Shown: positions 21,222 to 52,583 of the stretch, one piece after another | Position numbering within the stretch: the first letter of the stretch is position 1 | Layout of the letters: each line of letters starts with the position of its first letter | Origin: Escherichia coli | GTDB lineage: Bacteria > Pseudomonadota > Gammaproteobacteria > Enterobacterales > Enterobacteriaceae | Strand: one strand, 5' to 3' | DNA: 64,000 nucleotides | NCBI RefSeq assembly: GCF_013315695.1 | Contig: NZ_CP054353.1 | Made by a program: the position numbers and the translations under genes | The notes under the pieces: generated by a model | Seen by the model: the letters and a program-made list of their open reading frames with translations, nothing else | What the model was told of the DNA's origin: nothing | Databases searched by the model: none

Positions 21222-21686
21222 ATGGAAAAGAAATTACCCCGCATTAAAGCGCTGCTAACCCCCGGCGAAGTGGCGAAACGCAGCGGTGTGGCGGTATCGG
21301 CGCTGCATTTCTATGAAAGCAAAGGGTTGATTAGCAGTATCCGTAATAGTGGCAATCAGCGGCGATATAAACGTGATGTGTTGCGATATGTCGCAATCAT
21401 CAAAATTGCTCAGCGTATTGGCATTCCGCTGGCGACCATTCGTGAAGCATTTGGCGTGTTGCCCGAAGGGCATACATTAAGTGCGAAAGAGTGGAAACAG
21501 CTTTCGTCCCAATGGCGAGAAGAGTTGGATCGGCGCATTCATACCTTAGTGGCGCTGCGTGACGAACTGGACGGATGTATTGGTTGTGGCTGCCTTTCGC
21601 GCAGTGATTGCCCATTGCGTAACCCGGGCGACCGCTTAGGAGAAGAAGGCACAGGCGCACGCTTGCTGGAAGATGAACAAAACTAA
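21222..21686 (+). CDS. soxR: MerR-family redox sensor SoxR (154 aa)
   Basis: MerR HTH at the N-terminus and the C-terminal [12 protein letters not shown] [2Fe-2S] cluster motif. Confidence 0.95.
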
Positions 21687-21830
21687 AGCGCCACAAGGGC
21701 GCTTTAGTTTGTTTTCCGGTCTTTGTCTTTCTCTCTATCCCGCTGGTACACAGGAGGGTTTCCCCCGACGTCAACACACCTCATTCGAGCACGTGGTGGA
21801 GGTTCCGGTTGGTGTTGATGCTTTAATTGT
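21687..21830 (-). ncRNA. ryjA: Candidate small RNA RyjA (convergent with the soxR 3' end); coordinates approximate
   Basis: From recall of the K-12 map only (sRNA between soxR and the ghxP gene); the soxR terminator hairpin aaagcgccacaagggcgcttt is present. Not verifiable by eye. Confidence 0.3.
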
Positions 21831-39471: not shown

Positions 39472-39510
39472 TTGAAGATTGCCGGGGATATCCACCCGGC
39501 AATGTGTGGA

Positions 39511-39548
39511 TGCCTGATGCGACGCTTGCCGCGTCTTATCAGGCCTAC
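39511..39548. repeat. REP element between gltP and yjcO
   Basis: tgcctgatgcgacgcttgccgcgtcttatcaggcctac matches the REP consensus GCCTGATGCGACGCT.GCGCGTCTTATCAGGCCTAC. Confidence 0.65.
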
Positions 39549-39549
39549 A

Positions 39550-40239
39550 TTAACCGTTAGTTAATTTTTCAAACTCTTCACACCCGGTATCAAACCCTTC
39601 CATACAGCTCAGATTCAACCAGTGCAGCGCCTTTTGCTTGTTCTTCTCGATAAAACCTTCTTCACCGTTTAAGAACATCATTCCCGCCCAGTACTCGGAA
39701 TAACCGGTTCGGGAAATCGCAGAGCTGCGTTTGAAATACCAGGTTGCCTTGTCATCGTCGGCCTTAATGCCCACGCCGTTGGCGTAAATCAAACCAAGCA
39801 GCATTTGGGCATCGACGGCAGAGTCGTTCTCCAGATCTTCCGAGGCGTTTTCTAACAGCGAAATCGCCTTTGGATAATCCGGTTTACCCGCTTGCGTATT
39901 TACCAGAATATGCGCCAGCGTTACTTCACCTTCTTTACTGCCCGCTTGCGCCGCTTTCTCTGCAAGAACTTTTGCTTGTGGATAGTCCAGACTGACCGGA
40001 TTGGTGATTTTGATCTGCGCTAACAGCGCGCAGGCATCAGCATCACCGCTGTCGGCGGCTTTCTGTGCCCAATATTCGGCTTTGCTCAAATCGCCGGAGC
40101 TAAACCAGCTGTCGGCAAGAAAATATTGTGCGCGTCGGTCCCCGGCCTCTGCTGCCTTTAAATACTGGCTGCCAGGCTCGGAGTCGTTCGCGTGGGCAAA
40201 GAATGTCAAAAACAACATCAATGCGATAATTTTTTTCAT
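39550..40239 (-). CDS. yjcO: Sel1-repeat (TPR-like) periplasmic protein YjcO (229 aa)
   Basis: Signal peptide plus repeated A..G...A...(Y/W)...A motifs typical of Sel1 repeats. Confidence 0.85.
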   Translation of the reverse strand: MKKIIALMLFLTFFAHANDSEPGSQYLKAAEAGDRRAQYFLADSWFSSGDLSKAEYWAQKAADSGDADACALLAQIKITNPVSLDYPQAKVLAEKAAQAGSKEGEVTLAHILVNTQAGKPDYPKAISLLENASEDLENDSAVDAQMLLGLIYANGVGIKADDDKATWYFKRSSAISRTGYSEYWAGMMFLNGEEGFIEKNKQKALHWLNLSCMEGFDTGCEEFEKLTNG

Positions 40240-40332: not shown

Positions 40333-42480
40333 TTACGCCAGTGCCGCTTCGCGCAGGCGAGTTTTCAACTTGTTGTACTCGTCAATCACGTACTGCTCGG
40401 CGGCGCGCTGATCGGCGATCGGCTCGACGCGCACGGCGCAGTATTTGTATTCCGGCGTTTTCGTAATCGGGCTTAAGTTTTCGGTAACCAGCTCGTTACA
40501 GGCACCAATCCACCACTGGTAGGTCATGTAAATCGCCCCTTTGTTCGGACGATCGCTGACCTGCGCACGGGTGATAATTTTGCCTTTACGCGAGTGCACC
40601 CAAACCAATGCCTCATCTTCAATACCCAGACGTTTGGCGTCTTCGGTATTGATTTGTGCGTAGCCAGGTTCATCAGCCAGCGCCGCCAGTGCCGCACAGT
40701 TACCGGTCATCGAACGGCAAGAGTAGTGACCAACTTCACGCACCGTTGACAGTACCATCGGATACTCGTCGGTGAGTTTGTCGATTGGCGCTACCCAGTC
40801 GCAGGTGAAGAACTGCGCCAGACCGTTCGGGGTATCAAACTTCTCTTTAAACAGATAAGAAGTCCCCTGATCGGCATCTGAAGTATCGCGGCAAGGCCAC
40901 TGAATGAAGCCCAGTTCGCCCATTTTCTCGTAAGTCGCACCGTAGAAATCCGGGCACAGATGACGCAACTCATCCCAGATCTCCTGGGTGTTGTTGTAGT
41001 GCATCGGATAACCCATACGGGTGGCGATTTCACTGATGATTTGCCAGTCCGTTTTCAAATCCCATTTCGGTTCAACTGCTTTAAAGAAACGCTGGAAGCC
41101 ACGGTCAGCCGCAGTAAACACGCCTTCATGCTCGCCCCATGACGTTGACGGTAAAATGACATCCGCCGCCGACGCGGTTTTGGTCATAAAGATGTCCTGA
41201 ACGATGACCAGTTCCAGATCTTCAAAGGCTTTACGTACTGCCGACAGCTCCGCGTCAGTTTGTAGCGGATCTTCGCCCATAATGTACGCGGCACGCACTT
41301 CACCATGCTCTGCGCGGTGCGGCAGCTCGCTGATGCGATAACCGGTATGAGCGGGCAGGCTTTCCACGCCCCAGGCTTTGGCGAATTTCTCGCGGTTAGC
41401 CGGATCTTTCACATACTGGTATCCCGGATACGTATCCGGCAGCGCGCCCATATCGCAGGCACCCTGCACGTTGTTCTGACCACGAACCGGGTTTACACCC
41501 GCATGCGGCTTACCGAGGTTACCAGTCAGCATCGCGAGGCTGGTCAGAGAACGCACGGTTTCCACGCCCTGGTAGAACTGGGTTACACCCATGCCCCACA
41601 GGATGGCGGCGCTTTTCGCCTGGGCATACATCCGCGCCGCCTGACGAATCTCACTGGCGCTGACGCCGGTGATATCTTCAACCGACTCCGGCGTGTAGCC
41701 TTCAACGATTTTACGATACTCTTCAAAGCCTTCTGTACGGGAAGCGACGAACGCTTTGTCGTACAGATTTTCTTCAATAATGACATGGCCCATCGCATTC
41801 AACAGCGCGATGTTCGAGCCGTTTTTCAATGCAATGTGCATGTCAGCAATGCGCGCAGTTTCAATTTTGCGCGGATCGCAGACGATAATTTTCGCCCCGT
41901 TACGTTTAGCGTTAATTACGTGATTCGCCACGATTGGGTGGGAATCCGCCGGGTTATACCCGAAAACGAACACTAAATCGGTATTATCAATTTCGTTAAT
42001 AGCATTGCTCATTGCGCCATTACCGACCGATTGGTGCAGACCTGCAACCGATGGGCCGTGTCAGACACGAGCGCAGCAGTCAACGTTATTGGTACCAATA
42101 ACGGCGCGCGCAAATTTTTGCATTACATAGTTGGTTTCGTTACCCGTACCACGCGAGGAGCCGGTCGTCTGGATGGCATCCGGACCGTACTTCTCTTTGA
42201 TGGCGCTCAGGCGCTCGGCAACGTAATTCAGTGCCTCATCCCAGGAAACAGGTTCGAGTTTGCCGCCACGCTGGCGACGGATCATGGGGGTTTTCAGGCG
42301 CGGGGTCAGGATCTGGGTATCGTTAATGAAGTCCCAGCCATAATAACCCTTCAGACACAGGGTACCCTGGTTGGTTTTCCCCTGCGCTGCCTCCGCCCGG
42401 ACGATTTTGCCGTTATCGACGACCAGGTTGATTTTGCAACCTGATGCGCAATAGGGGCAAACCGTGACGACTTTTTTCAT
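40333..42480 (-). CDS. fdhF: Formate dehydrogenase H, selenoprotein (715 aa; in-frame UGA at 42058-42060 decoded as selenocysteine)
   Basis: Two ORF-track segments (42061-42480 and 40333-42012) are in the same frame and separated only by TGA; N-terminus MKKVVTVCPYCASGCKINLVV...; SECIS-like hairpin immediately 3' of the UGA. Confidence 0.95.
42010..42057 (-). other. SECIS element (selenocysteine insertion hairpin) within the fdhF mRNA
   Basis: mRNA sense reads UGA CAC GGC CCA UCG GUU GCA GGU CUG CAC CAA UCG GUC GGU AAU; matches the fdhF SECIS stem-loop by recall. Confidence 0.75.
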
Positions 42481-42529: not shown

Positions 42530-42547
42530 TATGCATCTTTTATGCCA
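42530..42547 (-). promoter_or_regulatory. Sigma-54 (-24/-12) promoter of fdhF
   Basis: Minus-strand TGGCAT-AAAAGA-TGCATA fits the TGGCAC-N5-TTGCA consensus about 50 bp upstream of the fdhF start; FhlA-dependent by established knowledge. Confidence 0.7.
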
Positions 42548-42677
42548 CATTTTATTTGGGGTCATTCCCTGATATTACGGGCACTATTTATTCAAAACTC
42601 TGACGAAAAACAGGCTGTCGTCAGTTTTGACGTGACGAAACGAAATACCGCGTGACAGCCATCACGCGGTAGACATT

Positions 42678-47725: not shown

Positions 47726-49711
47726 TTAATTTGGGGTTACGATATTCACCCACAAATCGAAATTATCCAGACAGGCAATAATTTCTTCCAGTTTTGCGCC
47801 ATTGCCAATAATTTTGGCTTTCTTCGCCTTTACCAGATCCGCCATTTTGGCTTGTCCGACCAGCACGTCGTGCAGATCGCTGCGGCTCATGTAAAACGAT
47901 GCGTCTACCTTCGGTTGCAGTACTTTACGGTAGTTCAATACGCTATTGTTGAGTGAGAGGTTCAGGTTATCGTTGTCAGAGAGATTGAAGTTCAGGCTGA
48001 TGGATTTGCCCGCGGCTTTCTCACTGTTCAGACGAACAGCCATGTAATCAAGCAGCATCTCGACGGTCATACCCTTGATGGTGTCAGGAGAGGCGGTGCT
48101 GGCGTGTTCGATTTTCTTCGCGCCCTCACGCAGTTCTTTCGCTCCCGTCAGGTAGAAGCCGCGCCAGGTGGCTGATTCGGCCTGATAACCCAATTGTTCG
48201 AAGGTATCGGCCTGTAGGTTTTTCGCCACCTGGTCTCCCGGATTGGCAGCAATCACCTGTTTCAGCAGTTCAGAGGCCCAGCGGTAGTCGCCCTGGTTAT
48301 AGGCTTCACGCGCCAGATTGATAGCATGTGCGGAACCTCCCAGCGCTTTGACATAACGTTTACCCATATCGACCTGGCCATACGGATTCAGGTTTGCTGG
48401 GTTACCGTCGTAGTAGCCGAGGTAAAAGTTATATACCGCGCGAGCGTTATGACTGACGGAGCCATAATAGCCACGGCTGGCCCAGTTTTTATCCAGCGTT
48501 TCCGGCAGATGAATCATGTTGCCGATTTCATTCATGGTGTAACCCTGGTTCGCCAGGTGCAGGGTCTGGTCGTGAATATACTTAATGGTGTCGCGATATT
48601 TTCCAATATAATCATTGATATGTTGATTACCCCATACTGGCCAGGTATGTGGCATAAACAGCACTTCTGCTTGTGATCCCCACTTATCCAGCGTTTCATT
48701 CAGGTAATCGGTCCACTTCGCGGTATCACGGGTTTTCGCGCCACGCAGGGTGTAGAAGTTATGCAGGGTATGGGTGCTGTTTTCCGCTGTGCACAGGGCT
48801 TTCAACGCCGGAATATAGAGGTGCATTTCAGACGGCGCTTCGCTGCCTGGAGCCATCAGGAATTCGAAATCCAGCCCGTCGATATTGAGTTTCTCTCCTG
48901 TCTTGGTGATAGATCGCGTCGGCGCGATAATTGTCGGGCCGCCGGTAGTAAGCGTAACACCCAGCCCGTTGCCGATATCTCCCTGTGCATTATGCGGGAG
49001 TAGCAGGCCGTAAGAGTAAAATGCACGGCGACTCATGATATTACCCGCCAGCACGTTTTCACTGATGGCTTCGTCCATAAAGCCTGCCGGGGCGATGATC
49101 TGCACTTTGCCTGCTTTTACATCGGCTTCTGAGACAATACCTTTTACGCCGCCATAGTGGTCAGTGTGGCTGTGGGTGTAGATAACGGCCACAATCGGTT
49201 TTTGTGGGCGGTGTTTGAAATAGAGATCAAGGCTGGCTTTTGCTGCATTTGGCGTCACCAGCGGGTCAATGACGATGATGCCCGTATCACCTTCAATGAA
49301 GGTGATGTTCGAGATATCCTGGCTGCGCACCTGATACATGCGGTCGGTGACTTTAAACAGGCCAGAAATGCCGTTGATCTGCGACTGACGCTACAGGCTT
49401 GGGTTAACGGTTTCGGGCGCGGGCGCATTGATATCAAATTTATAATCTTCTCCGAGATAATATGGTTTGCCATTAGCATCGCGCAGAATACCTTCATCCA
49501 GCAGCGGAGCGATAAATCCACGCTGAGCATCGTCAAAATCCTGACGATCGCTAAACGGTAATGATTTGGCGTAATTCTGATTAACCTGTTGGGTATATTG
49601 AGTGGCGGCTTTCGCTTCATCTGTTGCGTTAGCGGTATTTACCATCATGCCGCTGGCGGCAGTTAACGCAATAACAATCCTGCTCAAACGGAATAACCGA
49701 GAGTTATTCAT
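47726..49711 (-). pseudogene. yjcS: Alkyl/aryl-sulfatase family (MBL-fold) yjcS interrupted by an in-frame TAG at 49391-49393
   Basis: ORFs 49391-49723 and 47726-49339 are in the same frame; direct translation across the gap gives ...[31 protein letters not shown]...; MBL motif [11 protein letters not shown] is downstream of the stop. Confidence 0.8.
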
Positions 49712-51602: not shown

Positions 51603-52583
51603 TTACTTACTGATAAGACGGTCAAGGGCGACAGCCGCGATAATTAATCCGCCCATCACCACCAGTTGGTAATAGGTTTGTACCTGCAAAATATTCAGAC
51701 CGTTGTTGATGGTGCCGATGATCAACCCGCCAATCACCACAGAGAAAATGCGCCCCTTGCCGCCGAAGAAACTGGTGCCGCCAATGATGGCGCTGGCAAT
51801 GGCATAGGTTTCAAAACCCATACCGGCAAGCGGTTCTGCGGCACCGAGTCGTGCAGTTGAGACGACGCCTGCCAGACCTGCACAAACACCGGAGATGATA
51901 AACACCACCAGGATGTGGAATTTCACGTCAATCCCGGAATAGAACGCCGAGTTTTTGTTGCCGCCCAGTGCGTAGATGTTGCGTCCGAGCCGCATACGCG
52001 TTGTCAGAAACCAAAGGATGAGCGCGACAATTAGCGAGAAGATAACGGGAACAGGTATCCCAATTACGCTGGCGGCAAAGAAGTTCACGAAGTCAAATTA
52101 GAAGCCGTATACCGAGTTGGCATCGGAGATCACCAGCGTGATCCCACGGAAAATAGCGTTGGTACCAAGGGTGATAATAAATGGGTGTAGCCCCGTCCAG
52201 TTGACCAGGCAGCCGTTGATCGCCCCCAGTGCACCGCCAACCAGTACACCGCCAATCAGCGCCGCGAGAAACGGGTCAACACCTGCCAACATCAGTTTGG
52301 CGGTCACCATACCGGAAAGCGCCAGAATCGCGCCAACCGAGAGGTCGATACCAGCGACCAGGATAGCGAAAAACTCGCCCATGCCGATCAATACCGTCAC
52401 GGAGCTTTGCACAAAAATCTGGGTAATATTATTGGTGGTCAGAAAATATTCTGGTGACAGCGAACCAAAGATGGCGACGATGATCGCCAGGATAAAAAAG
52501 GTGCCGTATTTATCCCAGAACAGCGCAAAGTTGAACGGTTTCTTCTCGCTCGCTTCGCTTTTTACTCGTGTGGTAAAGCCCAT
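51603..52583 (-). pseudogene. alsC: D-allose ABC transporter permease alsC interrupted by an in-frame TAA at 52098-52100
   Basis: ORFs 52098-52583 and 51603-52088 are in the same frame; translation reads ...SDANSVYGF*FDFVNFFAASVIG...; total span equals 326 codons, as expected for AlsC. Confidence 0.8.

Follow-up and report, generated by a model that had tools for sequence, protein, structure and literature searches.

The in-frame UGA at codon 140 of fdhF in an Escherichia coli genome reads as the known bacterial selenocysteine recoding signal

Does the TGA that interrupts fdhF in this E. coli genome mark a broken gene, or a codon that is read as an amino acid? The question arises in a stretch of 64 kb, here called the window, in which a mechanical listing of open reading frames breaks the gene on the minus strand into two parts. 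The 5′ piece (42061..42480, stop included) encodes 139 aa, and the 3′ piece (40333..42012, listed from its first ATG) encodes 559 aa. The initial annotation, made from the letters of the DNA, had explained this split as recoding and not as a pseudogene. That explanation has held: the UGA at codon 140 is almost certainly the known bacterial signal for selenocysteine (Sec), decoded by means of a selenocysteine insertion sequence (SECIS) 3′ of the UGA. The evidence consists of identity with the SECIS of E. coli K-12, a match to the Rfam model SECIS_2, the presence of the published minimal string, alignment to Sec140 of the enzyme, conservation in E. coli and at 119 loci elsewhere, and the RefSeq annotation.

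The gene as a whole encodes formate dehydrogenase H (FDH-H), as indicated by its translation, by comparison with K-12 and PDB 1AA6, by TIGR01591 and by RefSeq. The CDS occupies 40333..42480 on the minus strand and specifies 715 aa including Sec140, followed by the terminal stop. Read from 42480 down to 40333, it comprises 716 codons counting this stop, and its only internal stop is the TGA at codon 140; translation and ORF pieces therefore agree with the earlier statement that an in-frame TGA at this codon splits the gene. The 3′ frame is in fact open from 42060, upstream of the ATG from which the 3′ piece was listed, and past the TGA there are 575 codons of open and conserved frame. The NCBIfam equivalog model TIGR01591, which describes the Mo-bisPGD enzyme FdhF, scores the protein at 1087.9 bits (cutoff 666.25). 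The Fe-S cluster cysteines C8, C11, C15 and C42 and the active-site residues His141 and Arg333 are all found in the translation. Compared with K-12, the gene differs at 24 nt, of which 23 are synonymous and one causes the substitution A391E. Accordingly, the protein equals the crystallised FDH-H (PDB 1AA6) at all residues but A391E, with a match that runs from 1 to 715 (E = 0). None of the differences from K-12 falls in the first 524 nt of fdhF, and the SECIS in the window is therefore 100% identical to the element that has been studied experimentally. The window is also 100% identical to the chromosome of E. coli strain MSB1_4I across the 23.7 kb that were compared (40333-64000), and for this identical strain RefSeq lists fdhF as a single intact CDS (WP_077626661.1).

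The selenocysteine codon itself is located at 42061..42063 on the minus strand, with T at 42063, G at 42062 and A at 42061. It is found by direct reading as the stop that closes the ORF 42061..42480, and it aligns with selenocysteine 140 of the crystallised enzyme (PDB 1AA6), which was written as X at position 140 in the protein query. The initial annotation had placed the TGA at 42058-42060, which is wrong by one codon, as these positions hold CAC (His141). The span that it gave for the element, 42010-42060, does bracket the hairpin but omits the UGA. The RNA that it quoted (UGA CAC GGC ... AAU) is, on the other hand, an exact reading of the minus strand from 42063 downward.

Directly 3′ of this codon lies the SECIS. 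The Rfam model SECIS_2 (RF01988) matches at 42014..42068 on the minus strand, including an outer helix that spans the UGA. The match spans the full model (positions 1-55 of 55) and, at 87.1 bits (E = 1.7e-18), exceeds the gathering score of 70; it is the only SECIS match within the 64 kb window. The UGA and the classical hairpin of about 40 nt directly 3′ of it, with a lower and an upper helix, occupy 42021..42063 (minus strand), as delimited by the minimum free energy (MFE) fold and the literature (PMC8659212). In this literature, the bacterial fdhF SECIS is described as a 40-nt hairpin with its upper stem-loop 11 nt after the UGA (PMC8659212, section 13). The definitions of the features used here (nt 15-31, U17 and G23) are taken from the same review, which names U17 and G23 as the binding sites of SelB on the SECIS (PMC8659212). 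The minimal SelB-binding upper stem-loop, GGUUGCAGGUCUGCACC, corresponds to nt 15-31 in a numbering that begins at the U of the UGA, and lies at 42033..42049 on the minus strand (read from 42049 to 42033). It is 17 nt long and starts 11 nt past the UGA, as published, and its delimitation follows from the published geometry, the published string and compensatory changes between species. The bulged U17 is at 42047, identified by direct reading, an invariant column and cross-species pairing. The apical loop GGUC (nt 22-25) is at 42039..42042, with G23 at 42041 and U24 at 42040, and its columns are invariant; both features are on the minus strand. Direct reading thus finds the stem-loop at nt 15-31, the 11-nt spacing, U17 and the loop bases G23/U24 as published. 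Moreover, the published minimal SECIS, ATCGGTTGCAGGTCTGCACC, which contains the upper stem-loop, is present exactly once in the window, at 42033-42052 (string from PMC10945757). The RNA 3′ of the TGA is base for base the same as the K-12 fdhF SECIS. With this identity, the SECIS_2 score and the minimal string, the earlier assertion that the mRNA at this place matches the known fdhF SECIS is well founded.

Folding of the 43-nt stretch (42021..42063) gives an MFE structure that is one hairpin, at -14.9 kcal/mol. The check by folding that had been proposed with the initial annotation therefore yields a stem-loop, and the loop nucleotides are kept in the alignment as well. The stability of the structure is not distinctive compared with dinucleotide shuffles, with z-scores of -0.56 (57 nt), -1.28 (43 nt) and -0.67 (the 17-nt upper stem). 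Support for the SECIS comes from the match in sequence and structure and from conservation, not from folding energy.

The region of the SECIS is conserved beyond protein-coding need, and its upper stem covaries. A pattern scan for fdhF returned 119 loci from other species; the TGA was demanded by the pattern, whereas the GGUC loop was outside it. These loci and the window make up 47 distinct orthologous sequences; one locus (L021), a chance match to the search pattern, was dropped. Besides the pattern-required TGA, all 119 loci have the GGUC loop unchanged; U17 and the four loop columns do not vary in any of the 47 distinct sequences. U24 is the four-fold-degenerate third position of Gly147, and it is U in 100/100 orthologues. 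Among about 100 other species, the mean entropy at four-fold third positions is 0.41 bits within codons 141-153, vs 1.37 elsewhere (Mann-Whitney p = 1.3e-6). Three of the four-fold sites in these codons are fully invariant, compared to none among the 107 outside, and the 10-site run with the lowest entropy within codons 40-340 is 139-152. Two Coriobacteriales loci (L028 and L083) were left out of this synonymous-site analysis. They have the UGA and the bases of the GGUC loop in common with the other loci, yet they form no hairpin of the E. coli type when folded, and they probably carry a different type of SECIS.

Compensatory changes are present in two pairs of the upper stem, nt15-31 and nt18-29. 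The former is G-C, U-A, U-G or C-G in 33, 10, 2 and 1 sequences, respectively. Changes on both sides affect three pairs and 26 cells of the 47-sequence alignment. In these 47 sequences, 89.9% of the pair cells do pair, vs 23-46% when the partners are slid; the shuffle control used with this alignment takes no account of kinship among the sequences. With U17 as the bulged base, the pair nt18-29 is UA in 34, AU in 9 and CG in 2 of the 47 distinct sequences. The register with U18 bulged, which is that of the Rfam consensus and of the single-sequence MFE fold, fits the other species less well, as the affected pair does not form in 11 sequences. Pairing across species favours U17, not U18, as the probable bulged base. 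The lower stem is only weakly conserved, with the column pair 17-39 unpaired in 30/47 sequences and the column pair 8-47 in 16/47. An unpaired lower region has been reported to cost only about 25% of read-through (PMC8659212).

Consensus folding depends on the set of sequences that is used. With all 47 distinct orthologous 55-mers, RNAalifold did not recover the SECIS hairpin and returned a weak alternative of -4.0 kcal/mol. This alternative helix, columns 9-15 with 27-32, was rejected, as it consists of invariant columns only and has no covariation; columns 9-16 were fixed by our own search pattern, so that the helix is not assessable on this alignment. On the same full set, the mean energy of the SECIS hairpin is -14.0 kcal/mol, vs -3.7 for the structure that RNAalifold itself chose. 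With the 29 sequences that have an upper stem of the E. coli type, the SECIS hairpin was recovered, at -18.9.

Two other explanations of the locus have to be weighed. One of them holds that fdhF, like yjcS and alsC, is a pseudogene, with codon 140 mutated to a stop that truncates it. The break into 139 aa and 559 aa made by the mechanical ORF caller speaks for it, and so does the presence of two true nonsense pseudogenes nearby in the same strain. Against it, the TGA is found at the same codon in K-12, fdhF is found in 5419/5426 complete E. coli genomes, and the 91-nt SECIS region around the TGA has zero mismatches in 5392/5420 E. coli fdhF records. The same TGA is present in fdhF at the 119 loci of other species, and it aligns with a Sec140 that has been observed crystallographically. 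Besides, the 575 downstream codons are open, and the ratio of 23 synonymous changes to one non-synonymous change against K-12 indicates purifying selection on the downstream frame. RefSeq flags both yjcS and alsC as pseudogenes with an 'internal stop' but leaves fdhF intact. The stops of these two genes are moreover strain-specific and of another kind, being TAG in yjcS (Trp107, TGG to TAG) and TAA in alsC (codon 162); strain MS 21-1 has an intact yjcS. Truncation of fdhF is thus vanishingly improbable, a reading that conservation, as judged from these comparisons, has already refuted. The initial annotation was right to set fdhF apart from yjcS and alsC, but it gave the wrong reason, namely that the latter lack a structure. 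The Rfam search of the 64 kb window indeed has no SECIS match at either stop, and the folds downstream of them are unremarkable. Selenocysteine recoding there was nevertheless rejected because the stop codons are TAG and TAA, which excludes it prior to any question of structure. The stops in yjcS and alsC are ordinary nonsense mutations, and both genes, unlike fdhF, come under the definition of a nonsense pseudogene.

According to the other explanation, what is conserved after the TGA is only the peptide HGPSVAGLHQSVGNG near the active site, without a functional RNA, and the UGA is read in another way, e.g., by a near-cognate tRNA. The high conservation of the peptide around Sec140, the unremarkable z-scores of the folds and the failure of RNAalifold to find the hairpin on the full diverse set would all suit this idea. 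It leaves unexplained, however, why four-fold sites, on which the protein places no constraint, are near-frozen only in codons 141-153. When the synonymous third base of Val145 changes, the middle base of codon 149 (which encodes His, Leu or Arg) changes with it, so that a Watson-Crick pair is kept; the same is true of Ser144 (third base) and codon 150 (first base). Changes of the stem that are synonymous and abolish FDH-H activity have already been reported in the literature. The 87 bits from the Rfam model reflect structure in addition to sequence. In addition, published mutagenesis of this exact sequence found that U17 and G23 are needed (Liu et al., 1998, as cited in PMC8659212), and reporters with a scrambled SECIS have been used (PMC10945757). 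Conservation of the peptide alone is, with these points taken together, a very improbable account of the locus.

Under the favoured explanation, selenocysteine recoding, UGA codon 140 would be read as selenocysteine, the active-site residue of FDH-H that coordinates molybdenum. Immediately downstream, the mRNA would fold into the SECIS hairpin, with its 17-nt upper stem-loop, bulged U17 and GGUC loop. SelB, the elongation factor that carries GTP and Sec-tRNA(Sec), would bind this stem-loop through its C-terminal domain. SelB would thereby hold the charged tRNA beside the oncoming ribosome, and at the UGA this tRNA would compete with release factor 2 for the A site. Published experiments on the K-12 element, which has the same sequence, report that SelB binds it and that read-through of the UGA depends on selenium (PMC4513850; PMC10945757; PMC8659212), with an efficiency of selenocysteine insertion of about 30-40% (PMC4513850). 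For the genome analysed here, SelB binding, Sec insertion and its efficiency are inferred by analogy from this published work on an identical sequence. None of the genes selA, selB, selC and selD is inside the window; an annotated selC (tRNA-Sec) gene is found in 5424/5426 complete E. coli genomes.

The closest relative of the element is the SECIS of K-12 fdhF, the prototype of the bacterial family (RF01988). It shares codon 140, the 11-nt spacing, U17, the GGUC loop and the minimal string, and all differences between the two genes, the 23 synonymous ones and A391E, fall outside the element. In other Gammaproteobacteria (Enterobacterales, Pasteurellaceae and Shewanella), the fdhF SECIS has the same UGA codon, the invariant GGUC and U17, and the same geometry of the upper stem. 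It differs in its stem pairs: at nt18-29 Pasteurellaceae have A-U and Shewanella has C-G, and both have U-A at nt15-31. These compensatory changes of the stem alter protein residues 149 and 150. Another curated bacterial family, SECIS_3 (RF01989), also has its hairpin directly 3′ of the UGA in a formate dehydrogenase-like context. It gives only a weak cross-match of 35.8 bits, below its gathering score of 63, and membership in it was rejected. Outside bacteria, SECIS elements of eukaryotes and archaea usually sit in untranslated regions. Their role is the same, namely to designate a UGA for Sec insertion by way of a dedicated elongation factor (PMC10778597). The bacterial element, in contrast, is part of the reading frame, beside the UGA, and SelB binds it directly (PMC8659212; PMC10778597), whereas the eukaryotic one is bound by a separate protein, SBP2 (PMC10778597).

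A variant form is seen in fdhF of Morganella, Providencia, Proteus, Hafnia and Edwardsiella (16/119 loci), where codons 149-150 are CAG CGN and G16 is therefore no longer able to pair with nt 30. In these five genera, the predicted upper stem is a continuous helix of 6 bp without a bulge, in which U17 takes part in a U-G wobble. The bulged U is reported to be essential in the E. coli SECIS. If the predicted fold is real, SelB of these genera would recognise a SECIS without a bulged U, implying co-evolution of SelB and its RNA, which we regard as unlikely. This bulge-less variant may already have been described.

The element in the window is already known biology: the gene is whole, and nothing about it is new. 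Selenocysteine recoding of fdhF has been in textbooks since about 1990. As the RefSeq annotation of this exact sequence is already correct and no open question is made testable, the value of the finding is one of annotation quality control only. In the output of a simple ORF caller, fdhF is cut in two at UGA140, which an unwary reader could mistake for the mark of a pseudogene. Recognition of the SECIS averts this error and cleanly sets fdhF apart from the true nonsense pseudogenes yjcS and alsC in the same window.

The gene fdhF, encoding formate dehydrogenase H (FDH-H), lies on the minus strand at 42480-40333 and appears in a mechanical ORF list as two pieces, 42061..42480 (minus strand, 139 aa, stop included) and 40333..42012 (minus strand, 559 aa, from the first ATG). 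Translated in a single frame, 42480..40333 gives 716 codons, with two stops, one at codon 140 and one at the terminus. From this translation, the ORF list and a direct read of the minus strand over 42070-42021 (TCGTGTC TGA CAC GGC CCA TCG GTT GCA GGT CTG CAC CAA TCG GTC GGT A), the internal stop is a TGA at 42061-42063. The split of fdhF at an in-frame TGA, as described in the initial annotation, is thus confirmed with a coordinate correction of 3 nt, as the position given there, 42058-42060, is CAC (His141) by direct computation. The RNA string it quoted matches the minus strand exactly, and the span it assigned, 42010-42060, includes the hairpin but misses the UGA.

Several E. coli chromosomes match the fdhF stretch at 100% identity, and strain MSB1_4I (NZ_LR898874.1) matches the flank at 42481-64000 (21.5 kb), likewise at 100%. 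The RefSeq annotation of that record has fdhF as one intact 2148-nt CDS (WP_077626661.1), with mdtP and yjcO on either side. The product scores 1087.9 bits against the NCBIfam equivalog TIGR01591 (cutoff 666) and aligns to PDB 1AA6, formate dehydrogenase H, from residue 1 to 715; X140 of that chain, the unknown residue representing selenocysteine, is opposite the TGA. Compared to K-12 MG1655 there are 24 nt differences, of which 23 are synonymous and one causes A391E. As the first of these is at nt 525, the UGA and the entire SECIS, the recoding hairpin 3′ of it, are identical to the experimentally characterized element. The Ala391 to Glu change (GCG to GAG, 41309, minus strand) is the sole residue change relative to K-12 and the crystallized FDH-H, and WP_077626661.1, which carries it, is annotated in both strain records examined (MS 21-1 and MSB1_4I).

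The Rfam family SECIS_2 (RF01988) matches end to end at 42068..42014 on the minus strand (87.1 bits vs a gathering score of 70, E = 1.7e-18), which is the sole SECIS hit within the 64-kb window; the related family SECIS_3 was rejected (35.8 bits vs 63). The minimal SECIS as published, ATCGGTTGCAGGTCTGCACC (PMC10945757), is present exactly once in the window, at 42033-42052. The review PMC8659212 defines the element as a 40-nt hairpin with its upper stem-loop at nt 15-31 (the U of UGA being nt 1), 11 nt between UGA and upper stem-loop, a bulged U17 and a loop carrying G23 and U24. By direct reading, all of these features are present in fdhF of the window: the upper stem-loop, GGUUGCAGGUCUGCACC, occupies 42049-42033, with U17 at 42047, G23 at 42041 and U24 at 42040 (all minus strand). 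Folding by minimum free energy yields the expected hairpin. The folding energy is undistinctive by itself (z-scores of -0.56, -1.28 and -0.67 for 57, 43 and 17 nt), and the case for a SECIS rests on the match in sequence and structure and on conservation.

Within E. coli, fdhF is found in 5419 of 5426 complete genomes and was not found in the other 7. Four of the E. coli matches are plasmid-borne, and the gene is present twice in at least one genome. A 91-nt stretch spanning the SECIS is without mismatch in 5392 of 5420 E. coli records; over the full gene, only 2068 records reach 99% identity or more. The single variant inspected, from strain 14EC007, has only three synonymous differences, all outside the upper stem-loop. 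For a comparison across species, one genome of each was scanned with the pattern TGYGCNCGNGTNTGACAYGGNCC (C-A-R-V-UGA-H-G-P), which covers no part of the upper stem-loop; this returned at least 120 loci. Among the matches listed, 119 of 120 are fdhF-like genes, mostly from Enterobacterales, with some from Pasteurellaceae and Shewanella and two from Coriobacteriales; the GGUC loop and U17 are invariant across their 47 distinct 55-mers.

An in-frame stop could make fdhF a nonsense pseudogene, a reading that is excluded: the TGA is universal and aligned with an observed selenocysteine, and the frame 3′ of it is open and under purifying selection (synonymous to non-synonymous differences of 23:1 vs K-12). 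The stops in yjcS and alsC differ from it in kind, even more strongly than the initial annotation held, as neither is a UGA. In the yjcS-like sulfatase gene (47726-49711), Trp107 is changed from TGG to TAG (49391-49393, minus strand); the near-identical strain MS 21-1 has an intact copy, from which R86L is a further difference. In alsC, the D-allose ABC transporter permease gene (51603-52583), codon 162 is an in-frame TAA (52098-52100, minus strand), and allose uptake is probably inactive in a strain with this stop. RefSeq labels both genes in MSB1_4I as pseudogenes with 'internal stop'.

Conservation after the TGA might also reflect coding constraint only. This explanation is excluded as well, being contradicted by frozen four-fold sites and compensatory pairs. 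Among 100 distinct orthologues, which share a median 83% of nucleotides with the window over 301 codons, the mean entropy of four-fold-degenerate third positions is 0.41 bits in codons 141-153 vs 1.37 bits at 107 sites elsewhere (Mann–Whitney p = 1.3e-6). Ala146, Gly147 and Leu148 show no third-base variation, none of the 107 outside sites is invariant, and 139-152 is the lowest-entropy 10-site run in codons 40-340, a pattern beyond what protein constraint can explain. In the alignment of orthologous 55-mers, 89.9% of cells pair in the hairpin with U17 bulged, vs 23–46% when the 3′ partners are slid by 1–3 columns. Both sides of a pair have changed in 26 cells, the shuffle control for this covariation taking no account of shared ancestry. 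At nt18-29, 34 sequences have U-A, 9 (Pasteurellaceae) A-U and 2 (Shewanella) C-G; at nt15-31, 33 have G-C, 10 U-A, 2 U-G and 1 C-G. Synonymous third positions of Val145 and Ser144 pair with first or second codon positions that alter residue 149 (His/Leu/Arg) or 150 (Gln/Lys), and therefore the RNA helix dictates the amino acids at these two residues.

The Rfam consensus line and the single-sequence minimum-free-energy fold place the bulge at U18 instead (42046-42047, minus strand; alignment columns 22-23), and for the E. coli sequence by itself both registers are indistinguishable. As the U18 register leaves 11 sequences unpaired at the affected position, and as nt18-29 shows compensatory U-A, A-U and C-G pairs, the comparative data favor the published U17 bulge. 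The lower stem is far less conserved, columns 17-39 being unpaired in 30 of 47 sequences, which fits the statement in the review PMC8659212 that unpairing this region lowers read-through by only ~25%. RNAalifold recovered the hairpin from 29 E. coli-type sequences (-18.9 kcal/mol). Applied to the whole diverse set, it did not find the hairpin and chose a weak helix of invariant columns, some of them fixed by the search pattern; evaluated on this set, the hairpin has -14.0 kcal/mol vs -3.7 for that choice.

The UGA, hairpin geometry, conserved contact bases and RNA-level selection are demonstrated in fdhF; the points on SelB, efficiency and Sec140 come from published work on the identical sequence. 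SelB with GTP and Sec-tRNA(Sec) would bind the SECIS stem-loop. The C-terminal WH3/4 domains of E. coli SelB contact SECIS RNA (PMC7590224), thereby positioning the charged tRNA at the adjoining UGA (PMC10778597). Against competition from release factor 2, the complex achieves an in vivo recoding efficiency of 30–40% (PMC4513850), and in FDH-H it is Sec140 that is catalytically active (PMC10945757). Genes for the selenocysteine machinery are absent from the 64-kb window; of 5426 E. coli genomes, 5424 have an annotated selC (tRNA-Sec).

Control of fdhF is sigma-54- and FhlA-dependent. About 50–65 nt upstream of its start codon lies TGGCAT-N5-ATGCA (42532-42547, minus strand), with the GG/GC spacing of a sigma-54 (-24/-12) promoter, and TCGTCA/TGACGA motifs are repeated further upstream (42590-42650, minus strand); presumably, these putative elements serve that control. 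Besides SECIS_2, the sole RNA family match above threshold in the window is sraL, an Hfq-binding small RNA (21679-21819, minus strand, 153.3 bits vs 39). A sub-threshold naRNA4 match (39480-39545, plus strand, 46.7 bits vs 59.5) lies in the gap that follows the yjcO ORF (39550-40239, minus strand), with gltP beyond this gap in strain MS 21-1, and is probably a REP-type extragenic palindrome.

Selenocysteine recoding through an intact SECIS, without pseudogene status, is thus supported by K-12 identity, the Rfam match, conservation and covariation. The element is the prototype bacterial SECIS, already known and correctly annotated in public records, and the mildly interesting by-products are confined to other species. 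Two fdhF-like loci from uncultured Coriobacteriales/Slackia (L028 and L083) have UGA-His-Gly-Pro and a GGUC equally distant from the UGA. The flanking sequence does not fold into the enterobacterial hairpin (minimum-free-energy fold -8.1 kcal/mol, z = +0.9), and the SECIS of these loci is presumably built differently. In Morganella, Providencia, Proteus, Hafnia and Edwardsiella (16 of the 119 loci among the matches listed, namely L016, L017, L027, L049 and loci of identical sequence), codons 149-150 read CAG CGN. Here the pairing of G16 with nt 30 is lost, and the upper stem, corresponding to 42033-42049, is predicted to form 6 bp without interruption, with U17 in a U-G wobble. This variant is predicted to lack the U17 bulge, whereas a bulged U17 is reported as required in E. 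coli, and SelB may have co-evolved with its SECIS target in these lineages.
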